Shown: positions 8,593-63,770, counted from the stretch's first letter. The stretch is DNA of 64,000 nt from an uncultured Eubacteriales bacterium (GCA_964525875.1 CAZGJS010000002.1:118577-182576), one strand, 5' to 3'. Numbers and translations are program-made. The notes: generated from the sequence alone by a model not told the origin.

Positions 8593-8773
8593 GGATCTCT
8601 TGTCCTCTTATTCTGATTCTAGCACACTCCCCCGCCCCGAGCAAAAGCGGCCAATCCCGATAACAAGGGAGAAGTAAAGATATTTTACAGGCGGGACACG
8701 TTTCTCCGTGACCCGGCCCCGTTGGAGGAGGTTCGGGGTTTATGATAAGCTAGCAAGGGATTTGCTGGAAAGA

Positions 8774-26863: not shown

Positions 26864-29587
26864 CTAGTACCGCGGATCCTTGAGAACGGAGGCGGACGCG
26901 GTCTGCGTCTTGCCGTCGACCGAGAGGACGAACCTGTATTCGCCGGGTTGAACGGGGAACGAAGCGGAGGCCGTCTGTTCGCGCCGGCCGGTCATGTTCC
27001 AGAAGGCCTTGTTCAGCCCGACGTCGGCCGTGCCCTTGATCTCGTTGAGCAGCATGTTGCCGGCGTAGACCTGGAGCTTCACTTCGCCCTTCGGCTTGGC
27101 CTTGAGGCTGTAATAAACGACCATTCCCGCGGGCTCGCTCTCGCCGGCGAAGTTCGAAGAGCCCGATTCACGCCGGTTCGTGCCGACCCAGCGGACCTTG
27201 GATTCGATCGCGAAAAGGTGGACGTCCTCGGCCAGAACCTCGGATGTGAGCTCCTGGAGCGGCTTGATGTCGGCGATATAAGCGCCCCGGCCGTGCGTCG
27301 CGACGATGAGGTCGGCCTCCCTCGGATGGACCTTGAGATCATGGACGGGTTGAGTCGGCAAGTCGTTTTTCATCTTCATCCACGACTTGCCGCCGTCGAT
27401 CGAGACATACACGCCGAAGTCCGTCCCCGCGAAGAGGAGGTTCGGATTCTTGACGTCTTCCCGGACGACGTTGACCGGCCCCTCGGCGAGTCCCCCGGCG
27501 AGGGACGTCCAGGTGGCGCCGTAGTCTGTCGTCTTGTAGAGGAACGGGCGGAAATCGTCGTTGCGGAGACCCGTATAGCTAACGTAAGCCGTCCCCGGGT
27601 CGAAGTTCGAGGCCGCGACGCGACTGACCCAGTAGCCCGGATTTCCCGCGATCTTGTCGTTGAGCTTGGTCCAGGCCTTGCCGTTGTCCCGGCTGACCCA
27701 GACGTTTCCGTCGTCCGTGCCGGCCCAGAGCAGGCCGGGGACGAGCGGCGACTCATCGAAGGTCGTGATCGTGCAGTATTGGATATTCCCGTCGCCGCCC
27801 TTGCCCTCGACCGTGAGCTTGGCCGGGTCGTTCGTCGTCAGGTCGGGGCTGATCTCCGTCCAGGACTCGCCGCGGTTCAAGGACATGACGACGATGTTGC
27901 CGCAGTGATAGACCGTATCGCTGTTATGGTAGGAGACATGGATGGGGGCGCACCAGTTCCAGCGCGTTTCGGGTTTCAGCCGCTGGTAGGCAATGCCCTT
28001 GGCCTCCCCCGTCACGAGGTCGATCCGGGTGAGGGGCCCGAACTGGGACTCGTTGTAAAGGTAACGGTTCGTGGCCCGGTCGAAGACGTTGTACATTCCG
28101 TCTCCGCCGCCGACGCTGAACCAATCCTCGAGGCGGATGGGCGGCCCGGGCGGGATGCCGCCGCCGGTCACGCCCCGCCTGCCGGAGGGACCGGCGCCGG
28201 GCTTGGTGCTCGGCCCCAAAAGAGAGCCGTTGTCCTGGAGGCCGCCGGCCACCCTGTAGGGATAGGACATGTCGAAGTCGATGGCGTAGAACTGGGCCAG
28301 GGAAAGGAAATCCGGATGATACCAGTTCTTGCCGCCGTCCCAGGTCACGCCCAGCCCGTGGTCGTAGCCGAGGAGCATGTGGTTGCTGTCCTCGGGGTCG
28401 ATCCAGAGGGCGTGGTTGTCGCCGCCGAACTGGAAAGGCGCGATCCACGTCTTCCCGCCGTCACGGCTGGCCAGGACGCCGACGCTCAGGATGAAGACGT
28501 TATCGTCGTTCGTCGGGTCGATGATGATCTGCCCGTAGTAATAACCCGGCGCGCCGCCGATGCTTCGCTTGTCCGGGCTGACTTTGCGCCAGGTCGATCC
28601 GGCGTCGTCGGTGCGATAGATCTCCCCGTCGATCATGCCCTGGCTCGTCTTGCCGTCGACGATTTCCTTCCAGCGGTCCTCGGGAGACATGCCCGGCTTG
28701 TTGGCGTTCTCGACCATGGCGTAGAGGACCTTCGGGTTCTTCGGGGAAATGGCCAGGCCGATGCGGCCGAGGATGCCGCCGGGAAGGCCGTTCGTGAGCT
28801 TTGTCCAAGTCCTGCCGCCGTCGGCCGTCTTATGGACGCCGGAGCCCGGCCCGCCGAGCTGGAACGTCCAGGGCTTGCGGAGCCGGTCATAGGAGGCGGC
28901 ATAGAGCGTCTCCGGGTCGGCCGGGTCCATGACCAAATCGACGACTCCGATCGTCCGCCCGGCGGCGGCGACGTCGAGGACCTTGGTCCACATGATGCCA
29001 CCGTCGGTCGTCTTGTAAACGCCGCGCTCGGCGTTTTCCGAGTAGAGGTGGCCCAGGGCGGCCACGTAGACGATGTCGGCGTTGGCCGGGCTGATGACGA
29101 CCCGCCCGATATGATGGGATTCCTTGAGACCCATGTTGCGCCAGGTCTTGCCGGCGTCGGCGGACTTGTAGACGCCGTCCCCCCAGTAGGTCGAGCGCGA
29201 GTTGTTGGCCTCGCCCGACCCCAGCCAGAGGATGTCGGGGTTGGACGGGGCCACGGCGACGTCGCCGATCGAGAAGACCTTCTCGTTCTCGAAAAGCGGT
29301 TCGAACGTCTGACCGTTATTCTCCGTCTTCCACAGCCCGCCCGAAGCCGCGGCCGCGTAGAACGTGTTCGGCCGCTGGAGCGGGACGGCGAAATCGACGA
29401 ATCGGCCGCTCTGCTGGGTCGGCCCGATGGAACGATAATCAAGAGTTTTCAGGATCTCCGCGACGTTGAGAGGAGCCGCGACCGGTGTCCTGGCCTTGAC
29501 CACGACCCGCCCCTGGGACAGGACGCCCGACGGAGCGATCATGAGAAGAGCCATGACCAGAGCTGCGATAGTGAGCTTGCGTATCAT
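26864..29587 (-). CDS. secreted BNR/Asp-box repeat beta-propeller protein (sortilin/VPS10-like)
   Basis: Signal peptide plus at least 9 Asp-box motifs (SADAGKTW, TTDGGIMW, TADGGRTW, TDDAGSTW, SRDGGKTW, WDGGKNW, SRDNGKAW, TTDYGATW, SIDGGKSW). 907 aa. Confidence 0.75.
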   Translation of the reverse strand: MIRKLTIAALVMALLMIAPSGVLSQGRVVVKARTPVAAPLNVAEILKTLDYRSIGPTQQSGRFVDFAVPLQRPNTFYAAAASGGLWKTENNGQTFEPLFENEKVFSIGDVAVAPSNPDILWLGSGEANNSRSTYWGDGVYKSADAGKTWRNMGLKESHHIGRVVISPANADIVYVAALGHLYSENAERGVYKTTDGGIMWTKVLDVAAAGRTIGVVDLVMDPADPETLYAASYDRLRKPWTFQLGGPGSGVHKTADGGRTWTKLTNGLPGGILGRIGLAISPKNPKVLYAMVENANKPGMSPEDRWKEIVDGKTSQGMIDGEIYRTDDAGSTWRKVSPDKRSIGGAPGYYYGQIIIDPTNDDNVFILSVGVLASRDGGKTWIAPFQFGGDNHALWIDPEDSNHMLLGYDHGLGVTWDGGKNWYHPDFLSLAQFYAIDFDMSYPYRVAGGLQDNGSLLGPSTKPGAGPSGRRGVTGGGIPPGPPIRLEDWFSVGGGDGMYNVFDRATNRYLYNESQFGPLTRIDLVTGEAKGIAYQRLKPETRWNWCAPIHVSYHNSDTVYHCGNIVVMSLNRGESWTEISPDLTTNDPAKLTVEGKGGDGNIQYCTITTFDESPLVPGLLWAGTDDGNVWVSRDNGKAWTKLNDKIAGNPGYWVSRVAASNFDPGTAYVSYTGLRNDDFRPFLYKTTDYGATWTSLAGGLAEGPVNVVREDVKNPNLLFAGTDFGVYVSIDGGKSWMKMKNDLPTQPVHDLKVHPREADLIVATHGRGAYIADIKPLQELTSEVLAEDVHLFAIESKVRWVGTNRRESGSSNFAGESEPAGMVVYYSLKAKPKGEVKLQVYAGNMLLNEIKGTADVGLNKAFWNMTGRREQTASASFPVQPGEYRFVLSVDGKTQTASASVLKDPRY

Positions 29588-32093: not shown

Positions 32094-33224
32094 ATGATCA
32101 GACGCTCGTCCTTCCCCTCCGTCCTGATGATATGCGCCTGTGTCCTCGCGCCGTATCGCGCGTCCGCCCAAGACGTCCAGCCCGGGGGTGCCGAAAAAGA
32201 GACCAAAAACTCCAAGGACGCCTTCAAGGCCCACCTCATCGCCATCCCCTTTATCTATTACTCCCCCGAGACGAAACTCGCGTTCGGCGGCGGCGGCGTC
32301 CTCAATTTCCGGGCGGGACGCAACAAGGAGCAGACCCGAGCCTCCACCGTCTGGGCCTTCGGCAGCTACAACCTGGCCAGGCAGTTCCAGGTCGTGGTCA
32401 AGCCCGAGATCTACTTCGAGCGCAACCGTTTCTTCCTGAGCGGCAACATCCGTTACGAGAGGACTCCCCAGATATTTTTCGGCGTCGGCAACGACATGCC
32501 GTCGACCGCCGAGGAATCCTACACGCCGCGGATCATGACCGTTCAAATGGGCGTGAAAAAGAAATTCCTGGGGCACCTATTCGCCGGCGTCCAATATGAT
32601 TTCGAGCAGATGACGATGGAAAGCGTCGAGCCCGGCGGCATCCTCAGTTCGGGGAGCATCACGGGAAGCCGCGGCGGCCTGCTCTCCGGCTTCGGGGTCA
32701 GTCTGGACTGGGACACCCGCGACGGCGTCCTCTACCCCCGCAAGGGTGTCTTTTTCCAGCTCACGGCCGACACTTACGGCGCCATGACCGGGAGCGACTT
32801 CGCGTTCACCAGCCTCAAGCTCGATTGCCGCGAGTATTTCCTCGTCGCGCCCGACCAAGTCCTGGCTCTCCAGGCGTACTTCAGGTCGAACTCCGGAGAG
32901 GTCCCGTTCCATAAACTCGCCTTGCTCGGCGGGGAGTCCCTCATGCGCGGCTATTACAAGGGCCGTTTCCGGGACAAGGACATCCTGGCCGTCCAGGCCG
33001 AATACCGGGTCATGGTGACGAAAAGGATCGGCGTCGTCGGGTTCGCCGGTCTGGCCGACGTCTTTCCCGACTTCTCGGAATTCGATCTCAAGACGATCAA
33101 GTATTCCGTGGGCACCGGCGTCCGCTACATGGTCAACAAACGCGAGGGCACGACCCTGCGTATGGACATGGCCTGGGGCAAAGCGAACTTCGGTCTCTAC
33201 TTCACCGCCCAGGAAGCCTTTTAG
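32094..33224 (+). CDS. outer-membrane beta-barrel protein (Omp85/surface-antigen D15-like barrel only)
   Basis: Signal peptide, alternating-hydrophobic beta-strand pattern and C-terminal aromatic residue (ends ...YFTAQEAF). Motifs resemble the Omp85 barrel (GVRYMVN, RMDMAWG). Confidence 0.6.
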   Translation: MIRRSSFPSVLMICACVLAPYRASAQDVQPGGAEKETKNSKDAFKAHLIAIPFIYYSPETKLAFGGGGVLNFRAGRNKEQTRASTVWAFGSYNLARQFQVVVKPEIYFERNRFFLSGNIRYERTPQIFFGVGNDMPSTAEESYTPRIMTVQMGVKKKFLGHLFAGVQYDFEQMTMESVEPGGILSSGSITGSRGGLLSGFGVSLDWDTRDGVLYPRKGVFFQLTADTYGAMTGSDFAFTSLKLDCREYFLVAPDQVLALQAYFRSNSGEVPFHKLALLGGESLMRGYYKGRFRDKDILAVQAEYRVMVTKRIGVVGFAGLADVFPDFSEFDLKTIKYSVGTGVRYMVNKREGTTLRMDMAWGKANFGLYFTAQEAF

Positions 33225-34360: not shown

Positions 34361-36217
34361 TTACCAAGCAATGCCGTAGTCCTCGCCGTAGTTGCTGCTG
34401 CCTCCCCAGAACGTGCCGTGGGCGCGGTCGAAGAAAATGGCGTTGATCGGGCCCGAGGTGTATTTCTTGACGGACAAAATATACCCCATGGCCCGGAGCT
34501 TTTCCCGGACCTCACTCGAGACTGTTTCGTTGACGTCGAGCTTCCCTGGAAAGGTCTTATGGTCGTTGAAGGAATCATGCATCTGGTAGCTCGTGATGTT
34601 GGCCGCCTCGCAGGCCTGCTGGACGTTCATCCCGAACTCGACCATGTCGAGGAAGAATTGGAGGAGGTTCTGGTCCTGGGTGTCCCCGCCCTGGACGGCG
34701 AAGGAGAGAAAAGGCCGGCCGTCTTTGAGGGCCAGCCCCGGCGTCAGCGTCGCCCGCGGCCTTTTCCCGGGCGCGATGACGTTGAAAGGGTTCTTCCACT
34801 CGTCGAGGACGAAGCTTTGGGCCCGCTGACTCATTCCGACTCCCGTCCTGCCGGCGATGACGCACGGGATCCAACCTCCGCTGGGGGTCACGGAGACGAC
34901 CCATCCTTCCTTGTCGGCGGCCTGGATGGACGTCGTCCCCGTTCGAAAGGCCTCCTCGACGGCGGCCGCCTCATCGGGGCCGAGCGCCCCGGCCTCTCCC
35001 CTGCCCCACTCGGGCCAGCGGTCGAGAAAGCCTAGATAGGGGTTGCTTTTCCCCTCGTAAGGGTAAGGATCACCGGGTTTGATATCGGGGTCGTTCTTGT
35101 CGCCCTGGATGAGCTTGGCCCGGTCTTTAGCGTAGGATTTTGACAGCAGGCCGCGGAGGGGCTCCTGCGGCGGAAAATAAGGGTCGCCATAATAGAAATC
35201 CCGGTCGGCGAAGGCCAGGCTCATGACCTGGTAGAGGGTATGGATGTAAGCGGCGCTGTTGTAGCCCATGGACTTGAGGTCGAACGTCTCGAGCATGTTG
35301 AGGGCCTGGAGCATGACCGGACCCTGCACCCAGCTCGTGAGTTTGAAGACTTCGATGCCTTTGTAATCGGTCGACACGGGCTCTTCGAGATGGACCTTCC
35401 AGGCGTCGAGGTCCGCCATGGTGATGAGGCCGCCCTGCTCGGCCGAGCCGCGGACGAATTCGCGGCCGATGTCACCCTTGTAGAAGCGGTCATAAGCGGC
35501 ATAGATCGCCTCTTTCCGGTTCTTGCCGGCGGCCCGGGCCCGCCGCTCGGCGGCGATGAGTTTTTTCAGGGTGTCGAGGAGGTCCGGCTGGCGGAAGAGC
35601 TCCCCGGGATGTGGCGCTTCGCGCGCCTTGCCGGGATGGGGCAGGAGAACGGCCCGGGAATAGGGCCACAACTTGATCTTGTCCTTGTCTTTTTCTATCC
35701 GGTCGCCGGTTTCCTTGTCCATGGGATAGCCTTCGGCCATCCGGAGAGCGGGTTCGAGGACCTCTTCGAGGCTCATCGTCCCGAATTCGGCCAGCATCGT
35801 AAAGAGGCCGCCGGGAGTGCCGGGAGTCACGGCCGAGAGGACGCCGTCGACGGGCGGGTACTCGAAGCCCTTGGCCTTGTAGAACTCGGCCGTCGCGGCC
35901 GCGGGGGCGACGCCCAGGGCGTTCAGACCGATGACCTTCTTCGTCTTGGGGTTGTAGATGAGGGCCTGGGTCTCGCCGCCCCAGCTCAGGACGTCGTACA
36001 TGGTGCAGACGGCGCCGAGCATGGCGCAGGCCGCGTCGACGGCGTTGCCGCCCTTGGCGAAGACGAGCGCCCCCGCCGTCGCGGCCAGCGGCTTTCCGGT
36101 GATGGCCACCCAGTTTTGGCCGTGGAGGACGGGTTTCTCCGTCCTCTGGCCGGATGATAGCCCGACCCAGAGCAAGAGACACGCGATGAGAACGACCGTC
36201 ACAGCATGCTTTTTCAT
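34361..36217 (-). CDS. ggt: gamma-glutamyltransferase family protein (Ntn hydrolase)
   Basis: Signal peptide, then the catalytic-Thr region FRTGTTSIQAADKEGWVVSVTPSGG and conserved GGS-like motifs. Start at the second ATG (MKKHAV) with AAGGA upstream. The tracked ORF starts at 36238. Confidence 0.8.
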   Translation of the reverse strand: MKKHAVTVVLIACLLLWVGLSSGQRTEKPVLHGQNWVAITGKPLAATAGALVFAKGGNAVDAACAMLGAVCTMYDVLSWGGETQALIYNPKTKKVIGLNALGVAPAAATAEFYKAKGFEYPPVDGVLSAVTPGTPGGLFTMLAEFGTMSLEEVLEPALRMAEGYPMDKETGDRIEKDKDKIKLWPYSRAVLLPHPGKAREAPHPGELFRQPDLLDTLKKLIAAERRARAAGKNRKEAIYAAYDRFYKGDIGREFVRGSAEQGGLITMADLDAWKVHLEEPVSTDYKGIEVFKLTSWVQGPVMLQALNMLETFDLKSMGYNSAAYIHTLYQVMSLAFADRDFYYGDPYFPPQEPLRGLLSKSYAKDRAKLIQGDKNDPDIKPGDPYPYEGKSNPYLGFLDRWPEWGRGEAGALGPDEAAAVEEAFRTGTTSIQAADKEGWVVSVTPSGGWIPCVIAGRTGVGMSQRAQSFVLDEWKNPFNVIAPGKRPRATLTPGLALKDGRPFLSFAVQGGDTQDQNLLQFFLDMVEFGMNVQQACEAANITSYQMHDSFNDHKTFPGKLDVNETVSSEVREKLRAMGYILSVKKYTSGPINAIFFDRAHGTFWGGSSNYGEDYGIAW

Positions 36218-36262
36218 TTGCCCATCCTTTTTACACATTGGGGTTTGGCGCCATCGAACGTA

Positions 36263-52500: not shown

Positions 52501-52549
52501 TCGGCCATCAGGCGCCTGGGAGAGCTGTTAGATAAAAGGAGAAGTGAGC

Positions 52550-53878
52550 ATGACAGCGGTAAAGAGTACGCGCAGCAGACTGTTTATCATGATGGTGATG
52601 GAGTTCTTCATCTGGGGCGCATGGCTTCCGCTGATATTCAGCTATTTGCCGAGTCTCGGATTCACCACGACCCAGCAAGCCTGGATCCTGAATGCCTTCC
52701 CCCTCTCGGCCATCGTCGGCATGTTTTTCAGCAACCAGTTCGCGGATCGACGTTTCGCCGCCGAGAAGTTCCTGGGTTTGAGTCACCTCATCGGCGGACT
52801 CGCGATACTCGGGCTGGGGTTCACCCGCGAGTTCTGGCCCTTTTTTGTCCTGATGTTCGTGCATTGCCTTTTCTACGTCCCGACCATCTCGATCGCCAAC
52901 TCGATCGCCTTCACCCACATGAAGGACGCGCAGAAGGAGTTCGGTTTTGTCCGCATGGGGGGCACCATAGGCTGGATTCTCGCCGCCTGGCCATTCACGT
53001 TCATCCTTGTGGATTGGGCCAGAGTTAAGGCAGCGGCGCCGCATGGAGTGGTCGCTTGGCTCGGAACAGTGCTCGGCTCGGGACTCTCCGGCCAAGCGTT
53101 GAAACAAGCGACGCGCTGGACATTCATCGTAGCGGGCGTCGTCTCTCTGGGCCTGGCCGCCTACAGCCTGCTTCTCCCGCACACGCCGCCAAAGAAAAAA
53201 AAGCTGGATGCTTCCGCTGCCGAACGCTTCGCGTGGCTTGAAGCGGTGAGGTTGCTCAAGCACCCGTTCGTACTGGTCCTTTGGTTCTTGACGTTCGTCG
53301 ACGCTTTCGTTCATAACTCGTATTTCAACTGGACCGCTTCGTTCCTCGGCGCTAGGCCGGAGGCCGGAGGAGTCGGCATTCCCGGCAACTGGATCATGCC
53401 CGTCATGAGTTTGGGCCAGGTCTCGGAGATCCTGACCATGCTCGCCCTGGGAGCCGTGTTGAAAAAACTCGGCTGGCGGATGACGATGCTCATAGGCATT
53501 CTTGGGCATGCCGGCCGGTTCGCGGTATACGCCTTTTTCCCCTCCCAGCCTTGGATGATCGTGGCTATCCAGGTCTTGCATGGCATCTGCTATGCTTTCT
53601 TCTTCGCCACGGTTTACATTTTTGTGGACGCGTATTTCCCTAAGGACGTTCGTTCGAGCGCGCAGGGGCTGTTCAATGTGATGATTCTCGGCCTCGGAGT
53701 GCTGGCGGCCAACTCGCTGTGCCCGTGGCTGATACAATCGGTCTTCACCGTCAACGGCGTTACAGACTTCCGCTCGATGTTCTTGCTGCCGTGCCTGACC
53801 GCGCTGGGAGCCGCTATCTTGCTGGCTGTGGCCTTCCGGCCTCCGGCAAGGGTCGAGACGGGCCAAGGCCTATCTTAG
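52550..53878 (+). CDS. MFS transporter, nucleoside:H+ symporter (NHS/NupG-like) family
   Basis: N-terminus [23 protein letters not shown], the NHS family hallmark, with 12 TM helices. AGGAG lies 8 nt upstream of the ATG. Confidence 0.7.
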
Positions 53879-53891
53879 GGTTCACTCGGAT

Positions 53892-54107
53892 TTGCGGGCT
53901 GCGATGAAGATCCGCTACCTCGACGGCAACAGACTGTACTACGCCTTCCTCGCCGGCGGACAGGCGGTCATCCGCGTCCCAACGTTTCTTCTTGTCCGGG
54001 TCTCCGGCATCCCGATGCTCGAGAAAAAATACGCCGGGAACGCGGAGTTCCAAGCCTACGCCCGCAGGACGAACGCCTTCGTCCCCTGGTTCCCGAAAAA
54101 GCCTTAG
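53892..54107 (+). pseudogene. C-terminal fragment of an ICMT/PEMT/DUF1295-like membrane methyltransferase
   Basis: The 71-aa ORF ends ...[32 protein letters not shown]. This matches the conserved C-terminal EE..L...FG..Y..Y...VP.FIP tail of that family. It lacks the TM/SAM-binding body. Confidence 0.3.
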
Positions 54108-57100
54108 AAGCCCGGGCTGATGCTCAACTGCAGATGCCAGCCGCGGACCGGCCGGTCGATCGGGTAGACGTAGTTCAACCCGAGGATGAGGTAGCCGAAG
54201 AGGTTCGTCCTCAGGCCGATACCGGCGCTGCTGATGGGCTTCCGGTTGCCGCCCAAGAACGTGGGTTTGACGTCCTCCGGGGTCTCCCCGCCCCACCAAT
54301 AACCGGGGTTCTGGGCGTAGGCGATGCCCCAGTCGAAGAAACCGAAGAATTCGAGGGGCCAGGCGCCGAAGTAGCCCTTGCCGATGCCCAGGACACCGAG
54401 CAGGGGAAAGCGCAATTCCACGTTGCCCATTAGCATCTTGCTACCGTAGAGCCGGTTGGGATCGAAGGCGTTGTCCGGATCCTGTTGGTACACGCTCAAC
54501 TCAGCGCTGGAGAACGACTCGTAGCCGCGGACGAGGTCCCAGTAGGCGATATAAAGGGGATAGAACCGATCGTCCTCGGCGTCCTTCCCATAGCGCCCCA
54601 CGTGAAGAGCCCGGAAGGCCAGCGTGAAAGGCCTCAACGGCATGAAGTACTTACGGAAATCCGCCGAGGCCGTTATAAAGTTTATGCTTCCGATGGCCGG
54701 AGACACGGACAGGCCGATATTCTGTCCGAGGATGGGGCTCGTCGCCCCGAATATCCCGCTGTCATAATAATAGCCCGCTGTCAGGTAGCCGAAGGACATC
54801 GCCGGGGGCGTCGGCACTCTCTCTTTTTCGTAGGCGATCAGGCCGCCGCTGACCAAGGAATAGATCCGGGTGTAAAGCGTCCGTTGGAAATCCTGGATGC
54901 GGAAACCCGCGCTCAGCGAGAACCGGCTGACCTGGCTGAAGGGATAGGAGCCGAAGACGGAGAAGTCGTAGTTGATGAGCCGGTAGATATCCCGCACCTC
55001 GAAGATCGCGGGTTCTCCCGCGAATTCGTCCTCGAACAGATAGTAATAGGGATAAGGATAGACGATCCGCTGGGCCGCCGAGCCCCAGTTGAAGCGTCCT
55101 TTGTTGTTGAGGTAGGCCAGGACGCCGGAGGTGTCGACGATTTGCGACCCGGTGAACGCGGTCGTGATGATCGTCTGGGTGCCGAGCATGTCGCTCCAGA
55201 ACGCGGAGACGCCGCCTGCGGCGTAGGTCCCATAGCGGTCGGCGCCGATGCCGATGGAAGCCGGCGAAACATAGTCCAGGGCGAGCTTGGGCTTGTATGC
55301 GGAAATCGCGAAGTTCGTGTCCTTGGGCAGGCCGAAGAGCGGGTTCTTGAGGAGGCCAAGGAGTGCGCCCTCGGCTTCCGCGCGCGGCGGCAGGAGGGCC
55401 GGGTTGCGGTCGAACTGAGCCAGGAAAGCCTGCCCCTCGAGGACCTTCGCGTCGTCGATCGAATAGACCGTGTAGTAACTGTCCTGGTAGCCGGAGAAGA
55501 CGACCCGGCCGGTGTTCAGGGCGACCGAAATGGCGGGACTGAGCTCGGTGATGCCGCTGATACCCGTGTACAGGTTCGTGACCTGGAAAAGTTGGCCCGA
55601 GGCGATATCGATCCGGTAGAGGTCGGTCTTGCCGTTCTGGTCGGAGAGGAAATAGAGCCCCTTCGAGTCCGCGGTCCATTGGGGGTTGATGTTCTTGCCG
55701 TTGGGGAAGCCCAGGAGCTTCTGGATCCGGCCCGACTCGACGTCGAGCAGGGCCAGCTCGTAGTTCCCGATATCGACCCAGTCGAGGTTGGTCGAGAACC
55801 GCTCGGTAACGAAGGCGATGGTCTTGCCGTCGGGCGACCAGACCGGCTGGAGGTCGGCGAAGACGTCCCTTGTCATCTGTTTGAGGACGTTGTCTTTGAG
55901 GTCGTAGATGAAGAGGTCCGAGACCCCGCCGGTCAGGGCGGTGAAGGTGACGTAGCGGCCGTCGGGCGACCAGGCCGGGCTGAGGATCTCGGCCAGTTCG
56001 CCGAAGGGGATCTCCCGCTCGATCTTGTCCTTCTTCATGTCGAGGATGATCAAGACCGGGCGGCCCTTGGCCACGCCGCCGAAGACAAATTTCTCGCCCG
56101 TGGCGTCCCAGGAGCCGGCGGACTTGATGAATTGGATGCTCTCGAAATGGGGGTCCACGGCGGTCGAGATGATCTTCCGCCTGATCTTGCCGGCGTCGGC
56201 ATCCGCCAGGTAAAGGTCGATCGAGAACATGTCCCGGGTCGAAAGAAACACGAGTTCTTTGCCGTCGGGGCTGATGGACGGCGCGATATTGTAGGGATTG
56301 GATTCCACGCCTTTGAACAACGCCTTGGCGAACTTGTCGGGCGCCTGGGTTTTTTCGATGAGCCCGTTGTAGGCGTCCTGCATCGATTTATGCCAATCGG
56401 CCGAAAGCTGCTTCAGCTTGATGCCGAGCACGCCCTCGAGGATGATCTCGTAGTCCCCGGCGCGGCCGACGGACTTCATCATCTTGCCGATGACTTCGTC
56501 CCCCCATCGTCCGGTGATGTACGCCCACACGGCCTGGCCCCAGCGGTAGGGGAAATACTTGTAGGAGTTTCCAAGCTTGCTGATCTGCGGCAGTTCCTTG
56601 CGGCGGACGGCGTCCCGCATCCACATCGAGGTGTTCTGATCGACCGGCCCGATGGACAGATACTCGGCCATGCCCTCGATGAACCAGAGGGGAATGCGGA
56701 GGCCCATCTCGTTCCCCCGGGCCTGGTCGGAATGGCCCTGGGCCATGATATCGTACTGGAAGGCGTGGACGAGCTCGTGTCCGATGACGTGGTCGGTTTC
56801 GGAGAGCGAGGCGCCATAGGGCAGGACGATCCGGCGCTTGAACGACTCGGTGACGCCGCCGGTGCCTTCGCCCAGGATCTCGCTGATGACGGTCGTCTGC
56901 TGGAATTCCGGGCCGCTCCCGTAGAGGATGAGCGGCTGACGGCCCTTGAGCTCATGGTTGAACATCCGGGAGAGACGCGCATACCAGCGCTCGGCCATGA
57001 GGGCGGCCAGCTTGACCGTCTGTTCGTCCTGGAGATAGAAGTAGATGTCGTAGTGCCGGGTCTTCATGATCTTGAAATCGAACTTCTGGTACTGAACCTT

Positions 57101-57205
57101 GTTCCGGCCGTAATACTGGGCCTGGAGGCCCGGCGCGCCCACGCCGGCCAGGAAGCCCACGAGGCTCAACGCAATTAGGACTCTGGAAAGAGCGGTATGC
57201 CGCAT
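54104..57205 (-). CDS. multidomain surface protein: HExxH metallopeptidase (MA-clan-like) + TolB-like PD40 beta-propeller repeats + C-terminal Omp85/BamA-type beta-barrel
   Basis: Start at [21 protein letters not shown] with GAGGAGG 7 nt upstream, followed by a signal peptide. [10 protein letters not shown]...[11 protein letters not shown] (HExxH...E zincin). PD40-like repeats [56 protein letters not shown]. The C-terminal about 400 aa is a beta-strand-rich barrel ending ...[12 protein letters not shown]. The tracked ORF starts at 57295. Confidence 0.65.
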
Positions 57206-57553
57206 GGATGTCCTCCTCTGAATACGGACGTATTGTAGCGGAAAAAGACCAAAGCGGGAAATGCCCTCCCGAACGGGAGGCTTTGATGCGAGCATAGGTC
57301 GAAACTCCTTTCGACCCCTTTCCGCCGATATCTTACCGGAAACATCGGGTTTTGTCTATAACGCACTAGGATGCAGCTAAGTTGCTGGCACATGACGCCA
57401 CCCGGGCTGTGATGGGGACCATCCAGAGCCCCCGTAGCGGAGGGGGACCCATCGGCTTGCCGATGGGGGAACCGCCGGGACTGGTTCCCGGGGGGGCCGG
57501 GGGATATGGGTGGTCCCCGTCGCAGCCAAAAGGGGTGGCGTCAAAGGGGCGTG

Positions 57554-57583
57554 TTGACCGAACTGTCCGAATTCCTGTAAGAT
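57554..57583 (+). promoter_or_regulatory. candidate sigma-70 promoter TTGACC-18-TAAGAT upstream of the transporter gene
   Basis: TTGACC at 57554-57559 and TAAGAT at 57578-57583, 14 nt before the ATG at 57598. This implies a very short leader with no clear SD. Confidence 0.35.
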
Positions 57584-57597
57584 GCTGGGCGTTAGGC

Positions 57598-58905
57598 ATG
57601 ACGACACAGATCCTAATCATTCTCGTGGTCATGGTCGCCGCTTATGTCGCGGCCAAGGCCGCCAAGCTGTCCGTCGAGCTGAGCATCTTCGCCTCGGCCC
57701 TGGCCGGCGGCGTCGCCGGCGCTTTCCTCAAGACACCGCCTGTCGCCGACTTGGGGCGCCACCTCGTCGAGGGCTCTTTCACCTACCTCGACGTCATCCT
57801 CGTCTTCTTCACGGCGACGCTCTTCATGACCATCGTCAACGAATCGGGCGGGGTCGTCTACGTCGTCCGAGCGACGCTCCGCGTCTTCGGCGGCAAGAGG
57901 GCCCTCGTCCTGCTCGTCCTGATGGTCATCGTCCTCATCCCCGGCGCCCTGACCGGGGCCGGGAGCGTGTCGCTTCTCGTCGTCGGCGCCCCGGTGGCTA
58001 TGGCTCTCGGCCGCCTCGGCGTCTCCCGCAAGAAGGCGGCCGCCATCCTCTTCATCGTGGCCGGCCTGAGCGCGGCGGCGCCCCCGGTCAACATCTGGGC
58101 CATGATCCTCTGCGCGGGAACGGCCATCCCCTACGTCGGCTTCGAGTTCACCCTGGGCATCCCCGTCCTCATCCTGGGCACGTTCACCGTCCTCGTCCTT
58201 GGCTGGAAGAAGGACCCGGGCGCCGCGGCGGGACCCCTCGAACTGCCGGAGCCGCCGAAGGGCATGACCTGGTGGCGGGTCCTCCTGCCTTTCGCCGTCT
58301 TTTTCGGGCTGGTCATCGCCTACCGGGCCTGGCCCTTCGCGACGCCCATCTTCGGCCTGTCCCTCGAGTTCGCCGTCGCCGGTGCGGCAGCCCTGCTCCT
58401 CAGCCCGAAAAAGATCGCTTTCCTGACGCTGGCCCGGGACACGCTGAAAAGGCTTCTGCCCCTTCTCGCCACCATGGTCGTCGTCGGCATGCTCCAGCAG
58501 GTCATGACCGTGACCGGCGTCCGCGGCCTCGTGTCGTTCGCCGTCATCTCGACGCCCCTCGTCCTCCTCTTCTTTCTTCTTCCGGTCATCATCCCCTTCT
58601 CCGAAGGGATCCTGACCTATGGCGCGGCGGCGATCATCGGCATTCCGCTGATCTGGTTTCTGGATTCGATCGGTTTTCACGCGACCGTCGTCATCGCCGG
58701 GCTGAGCCTCCTCTGGCCCCTCGGCGACGGCCTGCCGCCGACGGCCCTCATCGGCCGGCTGAGCAACATGGTTTCCGGGTACGACGGCTCCTATAAGGAC
58801 TTTCTTAAGGCGACCTGGCTCCCCTGGCTGGTCATCACCGCCGCGGGCATGGCCATGATCATCTTCAGTTCGAAACTGGCCTTCCTGGTCAAATGGAGCA
58901 TGTAG
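57598..58905 (+). CDS. polytopic membrane transporter, ion-transporter-superfamily-like (DctM/YfcC/NhaC-type), family unresolved
   Basis: About 435 aa from the internal ATG (MTTQILIILVVMV). 11-13 hydrophobic helices and Gly/Ala-rich re-entrant-like segments (GAGSVSLLVVGAPVAMALG). The upstream 72 codons of the tracked ORF are GC-rich non-coding sequence. Confidence 0.6.
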   Translation: MTTQILIILVVMVAAYVAAKAAKLSVELSIFASALAGGVAGAFLKTPPVADLGRHLVEGSFTYLDVILVFFTATLFMTIVNESGGVVYVVRATLRVFGGKRALVLLVLMVIVLIPGALTGAGSVSLLVVGAPVAMALGRLGVSRKKAAAILFIVAGLSAAAPPVNIWAMILCAGTAIPYVGFEFTLGIPVLILGTFTVLVLGWKKDPGAAAGPLELPEPPKGMTWWRVLLPFAVFFGLVIAYRAWPFATPIFGLSLEFAVAGAAALLLSPKKIAFLTLARDTLKRLLPLLATMVVVGMLQQVMTVTGVRGLVSFAVISTPLVLLFFLLPVIIPFSEGILTYGAAAIIGIPLIWFLDSIGFHATVVIAGLSLLWPLGDGLPPTALIGRLSNMVSGYDGSYKDFLKATWLPWLVITAAGMAMIIFSSKLAFLVKWSM

Positions 58906-60283: not shown

Positions 60284-62017
60284 GTGTTCAAGATGTTCGA
60301 CAAGAAAAGGATTCACGGCGTCCTGGCCCTCGCCGCCGTCCTCTTGTTCGCAGGCGGGCTGAGCCTGGACCTCGGCCATAACCCGGCTTCCGGCCCCGCC
60401 CTCGACAAGACGGCGGAAGCCTGCACGGTCATCATGGTCGGCCGCGAGGCCTCGACCGACGGCTCGGTCATGAGCACGCACGCCGCCGACTGCGGCGTCT
60501 GTGACTTCACCTGGAGGCATGTCCCGGCCGCCGCCCATAAGCCGGGCTCCACGAGAAAGCTCTACCACATCGACCAGATCCGGACCTGGCCGCCCTCCGA
60601 GGGTCTCAAGTGGGACATGGTCCTCAAGGACTTCACCGGAGTCGAGATCCCGCAGGTGTCGCACACCTACGGCTACCACCACTCCGTCTTCGGCTACATG
60701 AATGACCAGCAGCTGGCCATTGCCGAATCGACCATCAGCAACGTCCGCAAGCTCTCAAACCCCACGCCGACCCCTGCTCTGAACATCTCCATGCTGACCC
60801 TCCTGGCCATGGAACGGGGCCGGACGGCCCGCGAGGCCATCACGCTCATGGGCGCGCTGGCCGAGGAGTACGGTTATGGCTACCACGACGGCGGCGAGAT
60901 GCTGGCCGTCTCCGATGCGAAGGAGATCTGGGTTTTCGAGATCATGCCGGTCGGCCCGCTGTGGACGCCTAAGTCGGGAAAGCCAGGGGCGGTCTGGGCG
61001 GCCCAACGGGTTCCGGACGACCACGTCTCCGTCTGTCCTAACGAGGCGCGCATCGGGGAAATGGACCTCGCCAATTCAGACTATTTCATGTCCTCGGCGC
61101 ACGTTGTGACTTACGCCGTCGAGGCCGGGCTCTACGACCCGAAAATTGGTAAACCCTTCAGCTGGAAGAAAGCGTATTCGCCTGCCGAGGGGAGTGCGCT
61201 CAGCACCGAGGGCCGCCGCTCCCGCATGTGGCGTTTCTTCGACCTCGTCGCCCCCTCCCAGAAGTTCAAGGTCGAATTGCCCAACATGGACTTCCCCTTC
61301 TCCGTCAAACCCGACGCCAAGCTCTCGGTCCGGGACGTCATGGCCCTGACCCGCGATAAATCCCAGGGCTCGGTTTTCGATCCCGTCCGGGGGCTCCGAG
61401 GCGGCCCCTTCAAGAACCCGAACTATTACAAGGGCACGCGCCTCATCAGCGTCCCCAACGTCGAGTATACGACCCTGACCCAGTGCCGCTCGTGGCTTCC
61501 CGACCCGGTCGGAGGCATCGTCTGGGTCGCCCTCGGCGCCCAGGACACGTCCTGCTACGTCCCGTTCTACGCCGGGGCGACCGAGATCCCCAAGTCCTTC
61601 GGCATCGGCGACCACTTCGTCCTCAACCGGGACTCCGCCCGCTGGGCCTTCGACTACGTCGACTTCCACGTCCAGGTCGCCTACAACGCCGCCGTCGAGG
61701 ACGTCAAGGCGGCCCGGAAAACCTGGGAGGACGGCGCTCTCGACCGCGTCCCCGAGATCGACGCCCGGGCGGCCGAGCTCTACAAGAAGAATCCCAAGGA
61801 GGCCGTCCGCTTTCTCACCGACTTCAGCCTGAGCAACGCGACGAGCGTGGTCGGCGCCTGGTGGAAGCTCGGCGACGACCTCTGGGTGAAATACAACCAC
61901 CTCGGCCTCTACGACGCCGAGAAGCGGTCGAGCGGCCGCATCCCCACGGCCAACCCGGAGTGGTGGAACAGGGCCGTCAAGGCCTTCGACGTCCTGACGG
62001 AACCGGAAAAGAAGTAG
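60284..62017 (+). CDS. peptidase C69 family dipeptidase (Ntn-hydrolase, secreted), copy 1
   Basis: Signal peptide then AEACTVIMVGREASTDGSVM (nucleophile Cys exposed after processing). 577 aa. Shares about 75% identity with the next gene. Confidence 0.8.
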   Translation: MFKMFDKKRIHGVLALAAVLLFAGGLSLDLGHNPASGPALDKTAEACTVIMVGREASTDGSVMSTHAADCGVCDFTWRHVPAAAHKPGSTRKLYHIDQIRTWPPSEGLKWDMVLKDFTGVEIPQVSHTYGYHHSVFGYMNDQQLAIAESTISNVRKLSNPTPTPALNISMLTLLAMERGRTAREAITLMGALAEEYGYGYHDGGEMLAVSDAKEIWVFEIMPVGPLWTPKSGKPGAVWAAQRVPDDHVSVCPNEARIGEMDLANSDYFMSSAHVVTYAVEAGLYDPKIGKPFSWKKAYSPAEGSALSTEGRRSRMWRFFDLVAPSQKFKVELPNMDFPFSVKPDAKLSVRDVMALTRDKSQGSVFDPVRGLRGGPFKNPNYYKGTRLISVPNVEYTTLTQCRSWLPDPVGGIVWVALGAQDTSCYVPFYAGATEIPKSFGIGDHFVLNRDSARWAFDYVDFHVQVAYNAAVEDVKAARKTWEDGALDRVPEIDARAAELYKKNPKEAVRFLTDFSLSNATSVVGAWWKLGDDLWVKYNHLGLYDAEKRSSGRIPTANPEWWNRAVKAFDVLTEPEKK

Positions 62018-62045: not shown

Positions 62046-63770
62046 ATGAACAGGAAACGACTCATCGCCGTCGGCGGGACACTCGTCCTGGCCGTCGTCC
62101 TGGCCGGCCTCATTTCGACGGCCGGGAGCCAGGCCCTGGCCGGCCTCGACGACATCGTCCTCGCCGGCGAAGCGTGCACGTCCATCCTCGTCGGCAAGGA
62201 CGCCTCGACGGACGGCTCCGTCATGACGACGCACACCTGCGACTGCGGCACGTGCGACTGGACCTGGCGTCACGTCCCGGCCGCCGACCACAAGCCCGGC
62301 TCGACCCGAAAGATCTACCATATCTCGCAGTACAAGACCTGGCCGCCGTCGGAGGGCCTCAAGTGGGACCTCTACAAGAAGGACTTCGCCGGTCTCGAGA
62401 TCCCCGAAGTCCCCCGAACCTACGCCTACCACCACGGCATGTTCGGCTACATGAACGAGAAGCAGGTTTCGATCGGCGAATCGACCATCGGCTGTCAGCG
62501 CAAGATGCAAAACCCAACGCCGGCGGCCAAGCTCGACCTGACCATGCTGACGCTGCTGGGGATGGAACGAGGCGGCACGGCTCGCGAGGCCATCCAGGTC
62601 ATGGGCTCTCTCGCCGAAAAGTACGGCTACGGCTTCCATGACGACGGCGAGATGCTGGCCGTGGCCGATACGAAGGAGGCCTGGATCTTTGAGATCATGC
62701 CCGCGGGACCCCTGTGGACCCCGGAGAGCGGCAAGCCCGGCGCCGTCTGGTGCGCCCAGCGCGTCCCCGACGATCACGTCAGCGTCTGCCCCAACGAATC
62801 GCGCATCGGCGAGATCGACCTCGACAACAAGGACTTCTTCATGGCCTCGTCGAATGTCGTCTCGCTGGCCGTCGACATGGGCTACTACGACCCGAAGGGC
62901 GGCAAGCCCTTCAACTGGAAGAGGGCCTACTCCCCGGTCGAGGGCAGCGCGGCCGGCACCAACGGCCGGATCCAGAGGCTGTGGCGCTTCTTCGATATCG
63001 TCGCCCCGTCCAAGAAGTTCAAGCCCGAGACGCCTAACATGGACCTGCCGTTCTCGGTGAAACCCGACGCCAAGGTTTCCGTCCAGGACGTCATGAACAT
63101 GACCCGGGACCGGAGTTACGGGACGCCCTTCGACCCGGTCATGGGCATCCGCGGCGGGCCGTTCAAGAACCCCAACTACTACCGCGGGACGCGGGTCATC
63201 GACCACGGCCTGGCCGAGTACTCAACGGTCACCCAAAGCAGGACCGGCCTGCCCGACGCGATCGGCGGCATCGTCTGGATCGCCTTCGGCTCCCAGGACA
63301 CATCCTGCTACATGCCGCTTTACGCCGGAATGACCGAGATGCCCAAGTCCTTCATGGTCGGAGACCATTGGACCTTCAGTCGGGATTCGGTCCGCTGGGC
63401 CTTCGACTACACCGATTTCCACGTCCAGGTCGCCTACTCCGAGGCCATCAAGGACGTCATGGCGGCCCAGGCCAAATACGAAGGGGAAACGATCGCCCGC
63501 ATCCCGGAGATCGACCAGCAGGCCCTGGCCCTCTACAAAAAGAAACCGGCCAAGGCAGCCGAGTTCCTGACAGGGTTCGCGCTCAATAACGTCACGACGG
63601 TCGTCAACGCCTGGTGGAAGCTCGGCGACGACCTCCTCGTCAAGTACAACCGGCTCTACCTCTACAACGCCGAGAAACGGGGCTTCTCCCGCGGCCAGCC
63701 GGCGACTCCCGACTGGTGGAAGAAGGCCGTTCGGGCGTTCGACATTCTCATGGAACCCGAGAAGAAGTAG
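62046..63770 (+). CDS. peptidase C69 family dipeptidase, copy 2 (tandem paralog)
   Basis: AGGAGG RBS, signal peptide, then GEACTSILVGKDASTDGSVM. Colinear with copy 1 over the full length. Confidence 0.8.
   Translation: MNRKRLIAVGGTLVLAVVLAGLISTAGSQALAGLDDIVLAGEACTSILVGKDASTDGSVMTTHTCDCGTCDWTWRHVPAADHKPGSTRKIYHISQYKTWPPSEGLKWDLYKKDFAGLEIPEVPRTYAYHHGMFGYMNEKQVSIGESTIGCQRKMQNPTPAAKLDLTMLTLLGMERGGTAREAIQVMGSLAEKYGYGFHDDGEMLAVADTKEAWIFEIMPAGPLWTPESGKPGAVWCAQRVPDDHVSVCPNESRIGEIDLDNKDFFMASSNVVSLAVDMGYYDPKGGKPFNWKRAYSPVEGSAAGTNGRIQRLWRFFDIVAPSKKFKPETPNMDLPFSVKPDAKVSVQDVMNMTRDRSYGTPFDPVMGIRGGPFKNPNYYRGTRVIDHGLAEYSTVTQSRTGLPDAIGGIVWIAFGSQDTSCYMPLYAGMTEMPKSFMVGDHWTFSRDSVRWAFDYTDFHVQVAYSEAIKDVMAAQAKYEGETIARIPEIDQQALALYKKKPAKAAEFLTGFALNNVTTVVNAWWKLGDDLLVKYNRLYLYNAEKRGFSRGQPATPDWWKKAVRAFDILMEPEKK

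Follow-up and report, generated by a model that had tools for sequence, protein, structure and literature searches.

A gluzincin-like domain and a TolB-type propeller fused to an Omp85-type barrel in one predicted secreted protein of an uncultured Eubacteriales bacterium

The gene and its product

The window, a stretch of 64,000 nucleotides from the genome of an uncultured Eubacteriales bacterium, encodes on its minus strand a secreted protein of 1033 amino acids (positions 54104-57205). All features described below are located on this strand. The full extent of the open reading frame runs from 57295 to 54104, but a start at 57295 was rejected, since the longer product has no signal peptide at its N-terminus and the homologs begin at the downstream methionine. 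Instead, the start was placed at 57205 because of a strong Shine-Dalgarno sequence and an exact match to a database entry: the motif GGAGG (57212-57216), read from the sequence as part of AGAGGAGG, lies six nucleotides upstream of this ATG, and the resulting product of 1033 residues is identical to the database protein P0001.

The N-terminal 29 residues (57119-57205) constitute a putative signal peptide with a hydrophobic helix at residues 5-22 in the AF2 model and a predicted AxA site of the signal peptidase I type. Cleavage would occur after LQA and directly before QYYGRNKV. A comparable arrangement, namely a variable hydrophobic leader ending with a small-x-small pattern right before a conserved QYFGRNKV, was found in all twelve relatives inspected. 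The gene is monocistronic and is flanked by one convergent and one divergent gene.

An earlier note on the same DNA had described the gene product as a single secreted polypeptide combining a metalloprotease, a propeller and a barrel. This description is upheld by the open reading frame, the signal peptide and the identity with P0001, and each of the three modules was recovered in the analysis presented here.

Three modules and a conserved linker

Residues 30-290 (56336-57118) form a metallopeptidase domain of the gluzincin type (clan MA). Its motif HELVH at residues 143-147 (56765-56779), located in a helix modeled from 134 to 155, would supply two zinc-binding histidines and the catalytic glutamate. 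The second motif, EGMAE at residues 177-181 (56663-56677), is part of a helix spanning residues 173-185 and provides the putative third zinc ligand. An (N/E)EG motif is a feature of M1 and M9 peptidases and, by analogy, this ligand would be E177 rather than E181. The earlier note had quoted HELVH and the segment WFIEGMAEY (174-182) as evidence of an HExxH...E metalloprotease; both are present, and the fold bears out the assignment. In an alignment of 47 relatives with identities of 30-61%, H143, E144 and E177 are invariant, while H147 and E181 are conserved in at least 90% of the sequences. A further conserved element is the loop GGVTES at residues 116-121 (56843-56860), which precedes an edge strand (126-130) and in which G117 is invariant and G116, T119 and E120 reach at least 90% conservation in the same alignment. 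This loop is possibly a counterpart of the substrate-binding motif GxMEN of M1 peptidases; the AF2 confidence is low around it.

As matches to the propeller swamped the Foldseek search with the whole chain and thereby hid the zincin, the structure of this domain was predicted separately. All of its 50 best Foldseek matches are gluzincins. The nearest in fold are M30 peptidases (lugdulysin and hyicolysin), M9 collagenases and aminopeptidases of M1 and M61, with sequence identities of just 9-15%. The domain shows the thermolysin-like catalytic fold and the combination of HExxH with a glutamate ligand in a downstream helix that defines gluzincins. At the sequence level, a zincin-only profile detected no solved relative in the PDB, so that the comparison of folds was needed, and no peptidase family exceeded its threshold when the full-length protein was compared with Pfam. 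The M9 model PF01752 scored 22.7 bits with the full-length protein and 26.3 bits with the isolated domain (gathering score 26), the match spanning only model positions 163-272 of 289. Peptidase_M1 was matched neither by the full-length protein nor by the isolated domain. Two further features set the domain apart from M1: GGVTES takes the place of the strict GxMEN motif, and 29 residues separate H147 from E177, a spacing resembling that of M9, as compared to 18 residues between HExxH and the glutamate in M1. The zincin is thus probably a representative of an unassigned clan-MA family. Since H143, E144 and E177 do not vary even in relatives with 30% identity, we rejected the possibility of a dead domain; carrying all catalytic residues, the zincin is predicted from its sequence to be catalytically competent.

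The zincin is followed by a TolB-type PD40 beta-propeller at residues 291-590 (55436-56335), as proposed in the earlier note. Pfam PD40 was matched with four repeats above the gathering score (82 bits, E = 2e-23), and crystal structures of TolB are the best PDB matches both by sequence (E = 6e-16) and by Foldseek (about 5e-11; 4.7e-11). The propeller is modeled with a pLDDT of about 80-92, and its approximately 23 strands are consistent with six blades, the number found in the PD40 propeller of TolB. In contrast to TolB, the protein lacks the N-terminal TolA-binding domain, and its propeller shares a polypeptide chain with a protease and a barrel. The TolB equivalog model TIGR02800 aligns with the propeller region alone and yields 104 bits, below the cut-off of 343.15.

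Propeller and barrel are connected by a linker of 73 residues (591-663; 55217-55435) which shows 47% identity across phyla despite a pLDDT below 50. Ten of its residues (L605, R608, G613, L618, N621, L623, G625, P627, Y637 and L643) are invariant among relatives from Aminicenantes. In the model, the segment contains short helices only, among them one at residues 611-620, and lacks the beta-alpha-alpha-beta-beta unit; likewise, no match to the POTRA model PF07244 was found in the protein or in the 47 relatives.

The C-terminal 370 residues (664-1033; 54107-55216) fold as a transmembrane beta-barrel of the Omp85 type with a pLDDT of 80-93 for residues 664-1031, the full-length model having a pTM of only 0.47. 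Foldseek matched the barrel to the BamA structures 9hg5_A (2.7e-8) and 9ccg_D (4.1e-8) with a probability of 1.00. Counted by DSSP from residue 650 onward and anchored on the motifs, it comprises 16 strands without a low-confidence element at 650-655 and 17 with it. Two sequence hallmarks of the Omp85 superfamily are found in this module. The loop-6 motif (V/I)RG(Y/F) occurs as VRGY at residues 892-895 (54521-54532), in a long loop between the strands 860-872 and 923-934, with R893 and G894 conserved in at least 90% of the 47 relatives. The motif (F/G)xDxG occurs as FFDWG at residues 956-960 (54326-54340), in the strand 951-963 after loop 6, with F956 and D958 invariant in these relatives. The chain ends with Gly-Phe (1032-1033; 54104-54112 including the stop codon) as part of the beta-signal, and the last residue is aromatic in all 47 relatives (F in 26, W in 20 and Y in one). 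Barrel fold, loop-6 VRGY/F, (F/G)xDxG and aromatic C-terminus are shared with BamA and TamA; the differences are the absence of POTRA domains, of which BamA has five, and the enzymatic nature of the N-terminal modules.

The protein itself gave no match to the Pfam Omp85 model PF01103 at E <= 1, and the NCBIfam model for BamA (TIGR03303) was matched weakly at residues 740-965 (23.8 bits, cut-off 297.15). Because the protein is below the thresholds of both models, the assignment to Omp85 rests on the fold, the motifs and the end-to-end relatives, of which 21 of 47 distant ones match PF01103 (best E-value 5.2e-16). A comparison by hhalign of the family profile with a bona fide stand-alone Omp85 protein encoded in the window resulted in an E-value of 3.8e-4 at a probability of 36% and aligned VRGY with LMRGY of that protein. 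Of the checks that had been suggested, the Pfam search speaks for the propeller and the AlphaFold model for a barrel. The C-terminal region is modeled as a barrel instead of a soluble domain, and the zincin lacks neither the putative third ligand nor the fold, these being the two outcomes named beforehand as contrary to the proposal.

Family membership, distribution and naming

The architecture is not new. Heinz & Lithgow (2014) defined a WD40-Omp85 (“WD40-like”) subfamily of the Omp85/TpsB superfamily, classed as non-POTRA, with PF07676 repeats and PF01103 as architectures in their Table S2 and with structure matches to BamA/TamA, TolB and aminopeptidases (M1/M9) in their Table S3 (PMC4104836). 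By its architecture and the listed structure types, the gene belongs to this subfamily: a PD40/TolB-like propeller is located directly N-terminal to the Omp85 barrel, an additional aminopeptidase-like (zincin) region precedes it, and the fold matches fall into the PDB families of Table S3, namely M1 (F3, ERAP1), 4fgm and clostridial collagenase. The listed members include H1XQ58, D0MEQ5 and A9FGN9 (PMC4104836). Full-length relatives with 47-49% identity were detected in genomes of Caldithrix and Calditrichaceae (L053, L065). In the main text of that study, the propeller is considered only as a BamB-like fusion, the zincin is left undiscussed, and neither a function nor a topology is given (PMC4104836). 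Our literature search found no experimental work on any member of the family, which has been catalogued by bioinformatics only (2014). The earlier claim that the architecture is “not a textbook family” therefore holds only in part, as the subfamily had already been defined. The protein described here is one ordinary member of a known, experimentally unstudied family.

The distribution of the fusion, proposed for examination as well, turned out to be broad. At least 586 species genomes carry the architecture, the best 80 of these with full-length relatives of 45-93% identity from several phyla, and for the best 150 representatives (clusters at 50% identity), every match has an E-value under 1e-135. 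The family is present in Aminicenantes, Gemmatimonadota, Calditrichota, Ignavibacteriales, Bacteroidota, Chitinivibrionales and other lineages. Conservation from end to end spans Acidobacteriota/Aminicenantes, Gemmatimonadota, Calditrichota, Bacteroidota/Ignavibacteria and Fibrobacterota-related lineages, and the family is large and old. Four variants of 1068-1097 residues match residues 10-590 only; Pfam Omp85 is found in two of them (P0136 and P0172), and a scan of the four for an alternative C-terminal anchor (T9SS sorting domain or OmpA) was negative. Shorter representatives that match only residues 10-590 carry no additional domain, and they probably represent fragments.

No curated model exists for the family, and its members appear in public databases as “Tol biopolymer transport system component”, “peptidase S9” or “BamA/TamA family”. 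The first of these names, which is also the source annotation of the present gene, is a naming artefact. The second, found in some NCBI records, is a misannotation driven by the propeller, since only the N-terminal propeller models DPPIV_N and Peptidase_S9_N are matched; the catalytic alpha/beta-hydrolase domain of S9 with its Ser-Asp-His residues is absent from the Pfam matches of the protein and of the 47 relatives.

Orientation and putative role at the outer membrane

With a zincin carrying all catalytic residues, a propeller and an Omp85-type barrel in one secreted polypeptide, “outer-membrane-anchored protease”, the term used in the earlier note, is a fair description. We propose, at a probability only slightly better than even (about 0.55), that the protein is a periplasm-facing, propeller-gated metallopeptidase anchored in the outer membrane that serves housekeeping in the envelope. 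The domain identities, the motifs of zincin and barrel, the lack of POTRA domains and the broad, conserved distribution are results of the analysis, whereas orientation, substrates and what the propeller does are inferred. Export across the inner membrane would follow the Sec pathway, the leader then being cut off by signal peptidase. Omp85 proteins are usually seen as insertases or translocases equipped with POTRA domains. In the present protein, the linker would replace these domains and tether the zincin and the propeller under the barrel in the periplasm. Propellers are known to bind or gate substrates in S9 peptidases and Tricorn. By analogy, the six-bladed propeller would probably bind or gate unfolded polypeptides or peptides, and cleavage would be performed by the N-terminal gluzincin with its fold closest to M30, M9 and M1. 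Most likely, the enzyme would act constitutively on the inner side of the outer membrane and cut polypeptides that are periplasmic or associated with this membrane. A housekeeping character is suggested by the presence in so many species genomes, by the end-to-end conservation and by a monocistronic gene without a conserved partner: among 80 related loci, no neighbor beyond the synteny of close relatives recurs, and none is found in more than 24.

A periplasmic location of the protease, as opposed to one at the cell surface, is the most likely for several reasons. In Omp85 barrels, the first strand begins on the periplasmic side, TolB-type propellers are periplasmic and, to our knowledge, N-terminal modules are located in the periplasm in every Omp85 protein of known topology. 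Furthermore, the N-terminal modules are the most conserved (identities of 0.60 and 0.54, the zincin ranking first), whereas variation is greatest in the segments that correspond by homology to the extracellular loops 6 and 7 (0.23 and 0.10), although this argument is weakened by the fact that a conserved enzyme domain is expected at any location. Experimentally, the anchoring of a periplasmic enzyme by an Omp85 scaffold has its best precedent in PlpD (PlpD/FplA, formerly “type Vd secretion”), in which an enzyme is likewise fused N-terminally to a 16-stranded Omp85 barrel. Its enzyme domain, previously claimed to be self-exporting, was shown in 2024 to reside exclusively in the periplasm, and the passage of folded domains through an Omp85 barrel was judged energetically unfavourable (PMC11116518). 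PlpD differs in being a dimeric patatin phospholipase instead of a zincin and in having a single POTRA domain but no propeller; neither patatin nor POTRA was matched by the protein or the 47 relatives, which places them outside the type Vd group. We know of no dimer or lipid link in the family described here.

These observations bear directly on the earlier suggestion of a surface protease whose barrel exports its own N-terminal passenger. According to this reading, zincin and propeller would be translocated in a type V-like manner for extracellular foraging. The export of polypeptides by TpsB-type Omp85 proteins is established, the closest relatives in fold include the secreted endopeptidases M30 lugdulysin and M9 collagenases, and the mature protein contains no cysteines, as is common for type V passengers. 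In FhaC, helix H1 threads the barrel; by analogy, the conserved linker with its helix at 611-620 could in principle do the same and span the pore. However, the passengers of type V systems are secreted unfolded and are typically beta-helical, quite unlike a helical zincin and a closed six-bladed propeller, a POTRA domain was not found, and PlpD/FplA, the sole Omp85 system for which self-export had been claimed, is periplasmic (PMC11116518). An identity of 50-60% in the N-terminal modules across phyla next to variable loops would also be unusual for surface-exposed foraging enzymes. The peptidase genes of the window, which had been taken as a sign of protein foraging, lend little weight to this idea. 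An M16 pair, a GGT gene and a C69 pair are indeed present, but the M29 candidate gave no Pfam match. The C69 pair is located 3-6.5 kb from the gene, most of the peptidase genes are 18-45 kb away, and this neighborhood is conserved among close relatives only. The sequence offers no argument for export, and we regard a self-exported surface protease as unlikely.

The hallmarks of the barrel could also be read in favor of an assembly factor for outer membrane proteins, with the propeller as a fused BamB-like platform, the barrel as a BamA/TamA-like insertase and the zincin in an accessory or regulatory role. The features of insertases are retained (the VRGY lid-lock, FxDxG and the BamA-like fold), the wide distribution resembles that of housekeeping genes, and the analogy to a BamA-BamB fusion was explicitly proposed by Heinz & Lithgow (PMC4104836). 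However, POTRA domains, the substrate- and partner-handling part of BamA and TamA, are absent, and the propeller is of the PD40/TolB type instead of the BamB type. Moreover, the zincin is the most conserved module and its catalytic residues are invariant, which argues for proteolysis as the core activity, and reuse of the Omp85 scaffold in evolution for functions other than assembly was suggested in the PlpD study (PMC11116518). Such a role in assembly appears unlikely.

A periplasmic zincin beneath the barrel would also fit a transport process in the opposite direction, in which unfolded extracellular polypeptides are conducted inward to the propeller-gated enzyme. This is the direction used by Toc75, an Omp85 protein of the chloroplast, and the enzyme is attached directly to a barrel of a polypeptide-conducting type. 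Members of the family are common in lineages that are organotrophic or proteolytic (those from Aminicenantes to Chitinivibrionales named above), and other peptidases are encoded within the window. Nevertheless, the idea is based purely on analogy, we know of no bacterial Omp85 protein that imports polypeptides, and neither an energy source nor a partner gene became apparent at the 80 related loci. In addition, BamA-like barrels are closed on their extracellular side (PMC4104836), and we consider such uptake and degradation very improbable. A broader version, in which the barrel serves as an inward conduit or as a receptor of beta-signals and feeds unfolded extracellular or stalled outer membrane proteins to the zincin beneath it, is speculative and seems rather improbable; if true, one polypeptide would form an outer-membrane machine for capture and degradation, and the Omp85 proteins would gain a new functional class.

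If the preferred reading as a periplasm-facing peptidase applies, the family would be the second and far more widespread case, after PlpD, of periplasmic enzymes held by an Omp85 scaffold. It would be distinct in joining a zincin predicted to be catalytically intact with a TolB-type propeller in the absence of POTRA domains. Knowledge of its substrates and orientation would close a gap in the understanding of envelope proteostasis in phyla that lack the factors of the E. coli type. BepA, a periplasmic M48 peptidase acting at the BAM complex, differs in that it belongs to another zincin family, carries a TPR domain and is a protein of its own, either soluble or peripheral, and homology is not claimed; as a functional analogy, however, it is likewise an HExxH protease that works beside an Omp85 machine, on the side of the outer membrane facing the periplasm.

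Gene start and mature N-terminus

The gene for the 1033-aa protein (54104-57205, minus strand) is contained in a minus-strand ORF reaching from 57295 to 54104. Its start at 57205, as proposed in an earlier sequence-based note, is upheld, since AGAGGAGG precedes it by six nt, the product opens with a hydrophobic signal peptide (ending in LQA, followed by QYYGRNKV), and this product is identical to the database protein P0001. It has zero cysteines. The gene, which is monocistronic, lies between two plus-strand genes: one for a nucleoside/H+ symporter (52544-53878), convergent with its 3′ end, and one for a 507-aa polytopic membrane protein (57382-58905) with no Pfam match at 1e-3, divergent from its 5′ end. 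The latter accompanies it in only some 24 of 80 related loci.

Directly after the predicted signal-peptidase site, the mature N-terminus (aa 30-71; 56993-57118, minus strand) reads QY(F/Y)GRNKVQY..FDF and is near-invariant across phyla (Q30, Y31, F32, G33, N35 and Y39 at 90% or more). AF2 pLDDT is below 50 at aa 23-43, and this conserved unstructured stretch is reminiscent of TolB's regulatory N-terminus.

Gluzincin, propeller and Omp85 barrel

In Pfam, clan-MA families were matched by the full-length protein only below threshold (Peptidase_M9 with 22.7 bits; DUF6055; BSP), and the isolated zincin domain reached 26.3 bits for M9 (cut-off 26). BSP, DUF6055, M9 or Peptidase_MA_2 were matched in Pfam by 25-29 of 29 cross-phylum homologs, at best with 3.3e-9. 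A profile of the domain found no match among solved structures by sequence. The AF2 model of residues 31-300 (pLDDT 78.8, pTM 0.79) retrieved only gluzincins with Foldseek, the top 50 matches all being M61, M9 or M1 peptidases. AF2 models place HExxH on helix 134-155 and E177/E181 on the following helix 173-185; the two motif stretches quoted in the earlier note were found at aa 143-152 and 174-184. H143, E144 and E177 are invariant among 47 distant end-to-end relatives (30-61% identity), and H147, E181 and the upstream G116-G117-x-T119-E120 are conserved at 90% or more in the same set. At 29 residues, the His-to-Glu spacing resembles that of M9, and the domain lacks the strict GxMEN motif of M1. 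From the Pfam matches, the gluzincin-only fold matches and the conserved HExxH/E177, the domain is therefore predicted to be a catalytically competent gluzincin, and it fits no established MEROPS family. Both a probable third zinc ligand (the invariant E177) and a zincin fold, here that of gluzincins, are thus in place.

The claimed PD40 TolB-type blades were recovered by Pfam (PD40, 82 bits, 2e-23, four repeats), and the best PDB matches of this region are to TolB (6e-16 by sequence, 4.7e-11 by fold). Residues 294-583 were modelled with about 23 strands, which fits a six-bladed TolB-like propeller. With 104 bits, the score for the TolB model TIGR02800 stays well below the cut-off of 343; the protein is not TolB.

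A beta-barrel is modelled with confidence at residues 664-1031 (pLDDT 80-93), matching BamA of E. coli and Fusobacterium in Foldseek (2.7e-8 and 4.1e-8, probability 1.00). Strands 860-872 and 923-934 flank a long loop, at the loop-6 position, that contains VRGY (892); the next strand carries FFDWG (956). Both Omp85 hallmarks are kept in distant relatives, and the C-terminal residue is aromatic in 47 of 47. Motif-anchored numbering gives 16 strands, preceded by an extra low-confidence element at 650-655. With these hallmarks and the BamA fold matches, the C-terminal 400 aa present themselves as a membrane barrel, as the earlier note had held. PF01103 is not reached by the protein itself and is matched by 21 of the 47 relatives (best 5.2e-16). 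No POTRA domain was found by Pfam in the protein or these relatives; in its place stands a well-conserved 73-residue linker (591-663) with a low-confidence model.

A stand-alone Omp85 protein is encoded about 21 kb away (32094-33224, plus strand; 376 aa, secreted, barrel only; PF01103 with 51.6 bits at aa 101-346). This "noNterm" paralog lacks POTRA or any other N-terminal domain, and hhalign with the family profile pairs LVRGY with its LMRGY (E 3.8e-4).

Orientation and proposed role

Strand 1 of Omp85 barrels begins at the periplasmic face, and TolB-type propellers are periplasmic. Among relatives less than 60% identical overall, conservation is highest in the zincin and propeller modules (identity 0.60 and 0.54) and lowest in the segments homologous to extracellular loops 6 and 7 (0.23 and 0.10). 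For these reasons, a periplasmic location is favoured. To our knowledge, PlpD ("type Vd secretion"), a patatin-like enzyme fusion, was the sole claimed precedent for a self-exporting Omp85 barrel. Its enzyme domain was later shown to be periplasmic, and passage of a domain in its folded state through a likewise folded Omp85 barrel was argued to be strongly disfavoured on both energetic and structural grounds (Hanson et al. 2024, PMC11116518). Surface display or self-export is accordingly unlikely: from the outer-membrane surface protease of the earlier note, the three-module architecture and the anchoring persist, and surface exposure and self-export are disfavoured by PlpD and the conservation pattern.

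We consider the protein, with a probability of roughly 0.55, to be a propeller-gated gluzincin that is anchored in the outer membrane, faces the periplasm and serves a housekeeping role in the turnover of envelope proteins or peptides. Zincin and propeller would lie on the periplasmic side, the propeller may gate the gluzincin, and envelope proteins or peptides would be the substrates turned over. Such a role parallels the logic of BepA at BAM as well as PlpD as an anchored enzyme. That the barrel conducts polypeptides inward to feed the protease seems very improbable; the remaining probability falls to roles beyond those considered here.

One of the ten subfamilies into which the Omp85/TpsB superfamily has been split is "WD40-Omp85", which lacks POTRA and carries a TolB-like propeller on the N-terminal side of its barrel (Heinz & Lithgow 2014, PMC4104836). 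Its architecture is listed there as PF07676 repeats plus PF01103 (Table S2), and Table S3 reports BamA/TamA barrel matches, TolB matches and, in a column "best aminopeptidase hit", 1z5h F3, 4kxd, 4fgm, 3qnf ERAP1 and 4ar1 collagenase (about 99%), for members from Caldithrix, Rhodothermus, Sorangium, Anaeromyxobacter, Cloacimonas and others. The structural neighbours obtained independently here are the same, so the three-module layout was already recorded in 2014; the protein is a new member of a described kind, and its architecture is not novel. For this subfamily, the main text of that study was limited to the idea of a BamA-BamB-like fusion (PMC4104836). That the protein is an assembly platform in the manner of BamB, with the protease as an accessory, is in our estimate doubtful. 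A literature search found no experimental follow-up on WD40-Omp85.

Family distribution and gene neighbourhood

The family is widespread and a worthwhile target, more interesting since the PlpD result. In a word-indexed search, the best 120 of at least 8000 matches share 64-100% identity, nearly all over full length, and named entries among them are Candidatus Aminicenantes. With one genome scanned per GTDB species, a relative turned up in at least 586 of them; the best 80 matches, mostly full length with 45-93% identity, come from Aminicenantes, Vicinamibacterales, Gemmatimonadota, Calditrichota, Ignavibacteriales, Bacteroidota and others. An exhaustive search of representatives at 50% identity (E<=1e-30) gave 1629 matches, the top 150 all below 1e-135 and mostly proteins of about 1000 aa aligning end to end at 32-62% identity. 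The names in the source records are either generic or incorrect ("Tol biopolymer transport system component", "peptidase S9", "BamA/TamA family", "hypothetical"). In four variants of 1068-1097 aa no alternative C-terminal anchor or domain was detected, and two of them matched Pfam Omp85. These analyses establish the domain identities, motifs and distribution; orientation, substrates, propeller gating and hence function are inferred. This locus adds nothing past membership.

The distant representative P0164 (1284 aa) carries an N-terminal Peptidase_M50 (site-2 protease) region before zincin, PD40 and Omp85. Probably an upstream gene for an inner-membrane protease was merged into this gene call; the adjacency, if real, would hint at a link to envelope proteolysis. 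Six gene calls of 290-450 aa (P0356, P0372, P0308, P0336, P0374, P0362) comprise the zincin alone or with a partial propeller. Since these calls lie on very long contigs (260 kb to 960 kb), truncation at a contig end does not explain them; they may be frameshifted copies or genuine barrel-less enzymes.

The peptidase-rich neighbourhood invoked for extracellular foraging was confirmed by Pfam for an M16 pair (8708-11478), a GGT (34361-36238) and a tandem Peptidase_C69 (dipeptidase) pair (60284-62017 and 62046-63770, plus strand), and the M29 candidate had no Pfam match. Most of these genes lie 18-45 kb from the protease gene, and no neighbour is conserved beyond close relatives, any one occurring in at most 24 of 80 loci. 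The neighbourhood is therefore little functional evidence, and the foraging argument built on it is weak. The C69 pair, both with signal-peptide-like N-termini, lies 3-6.5 kb upstream on the opposite strand. A secreted 907-aa protein with Sortilin/Vps10 and BNR/Asp-box repeats (26864-29587, minus strand) is likely another large propeller-type exported protein.
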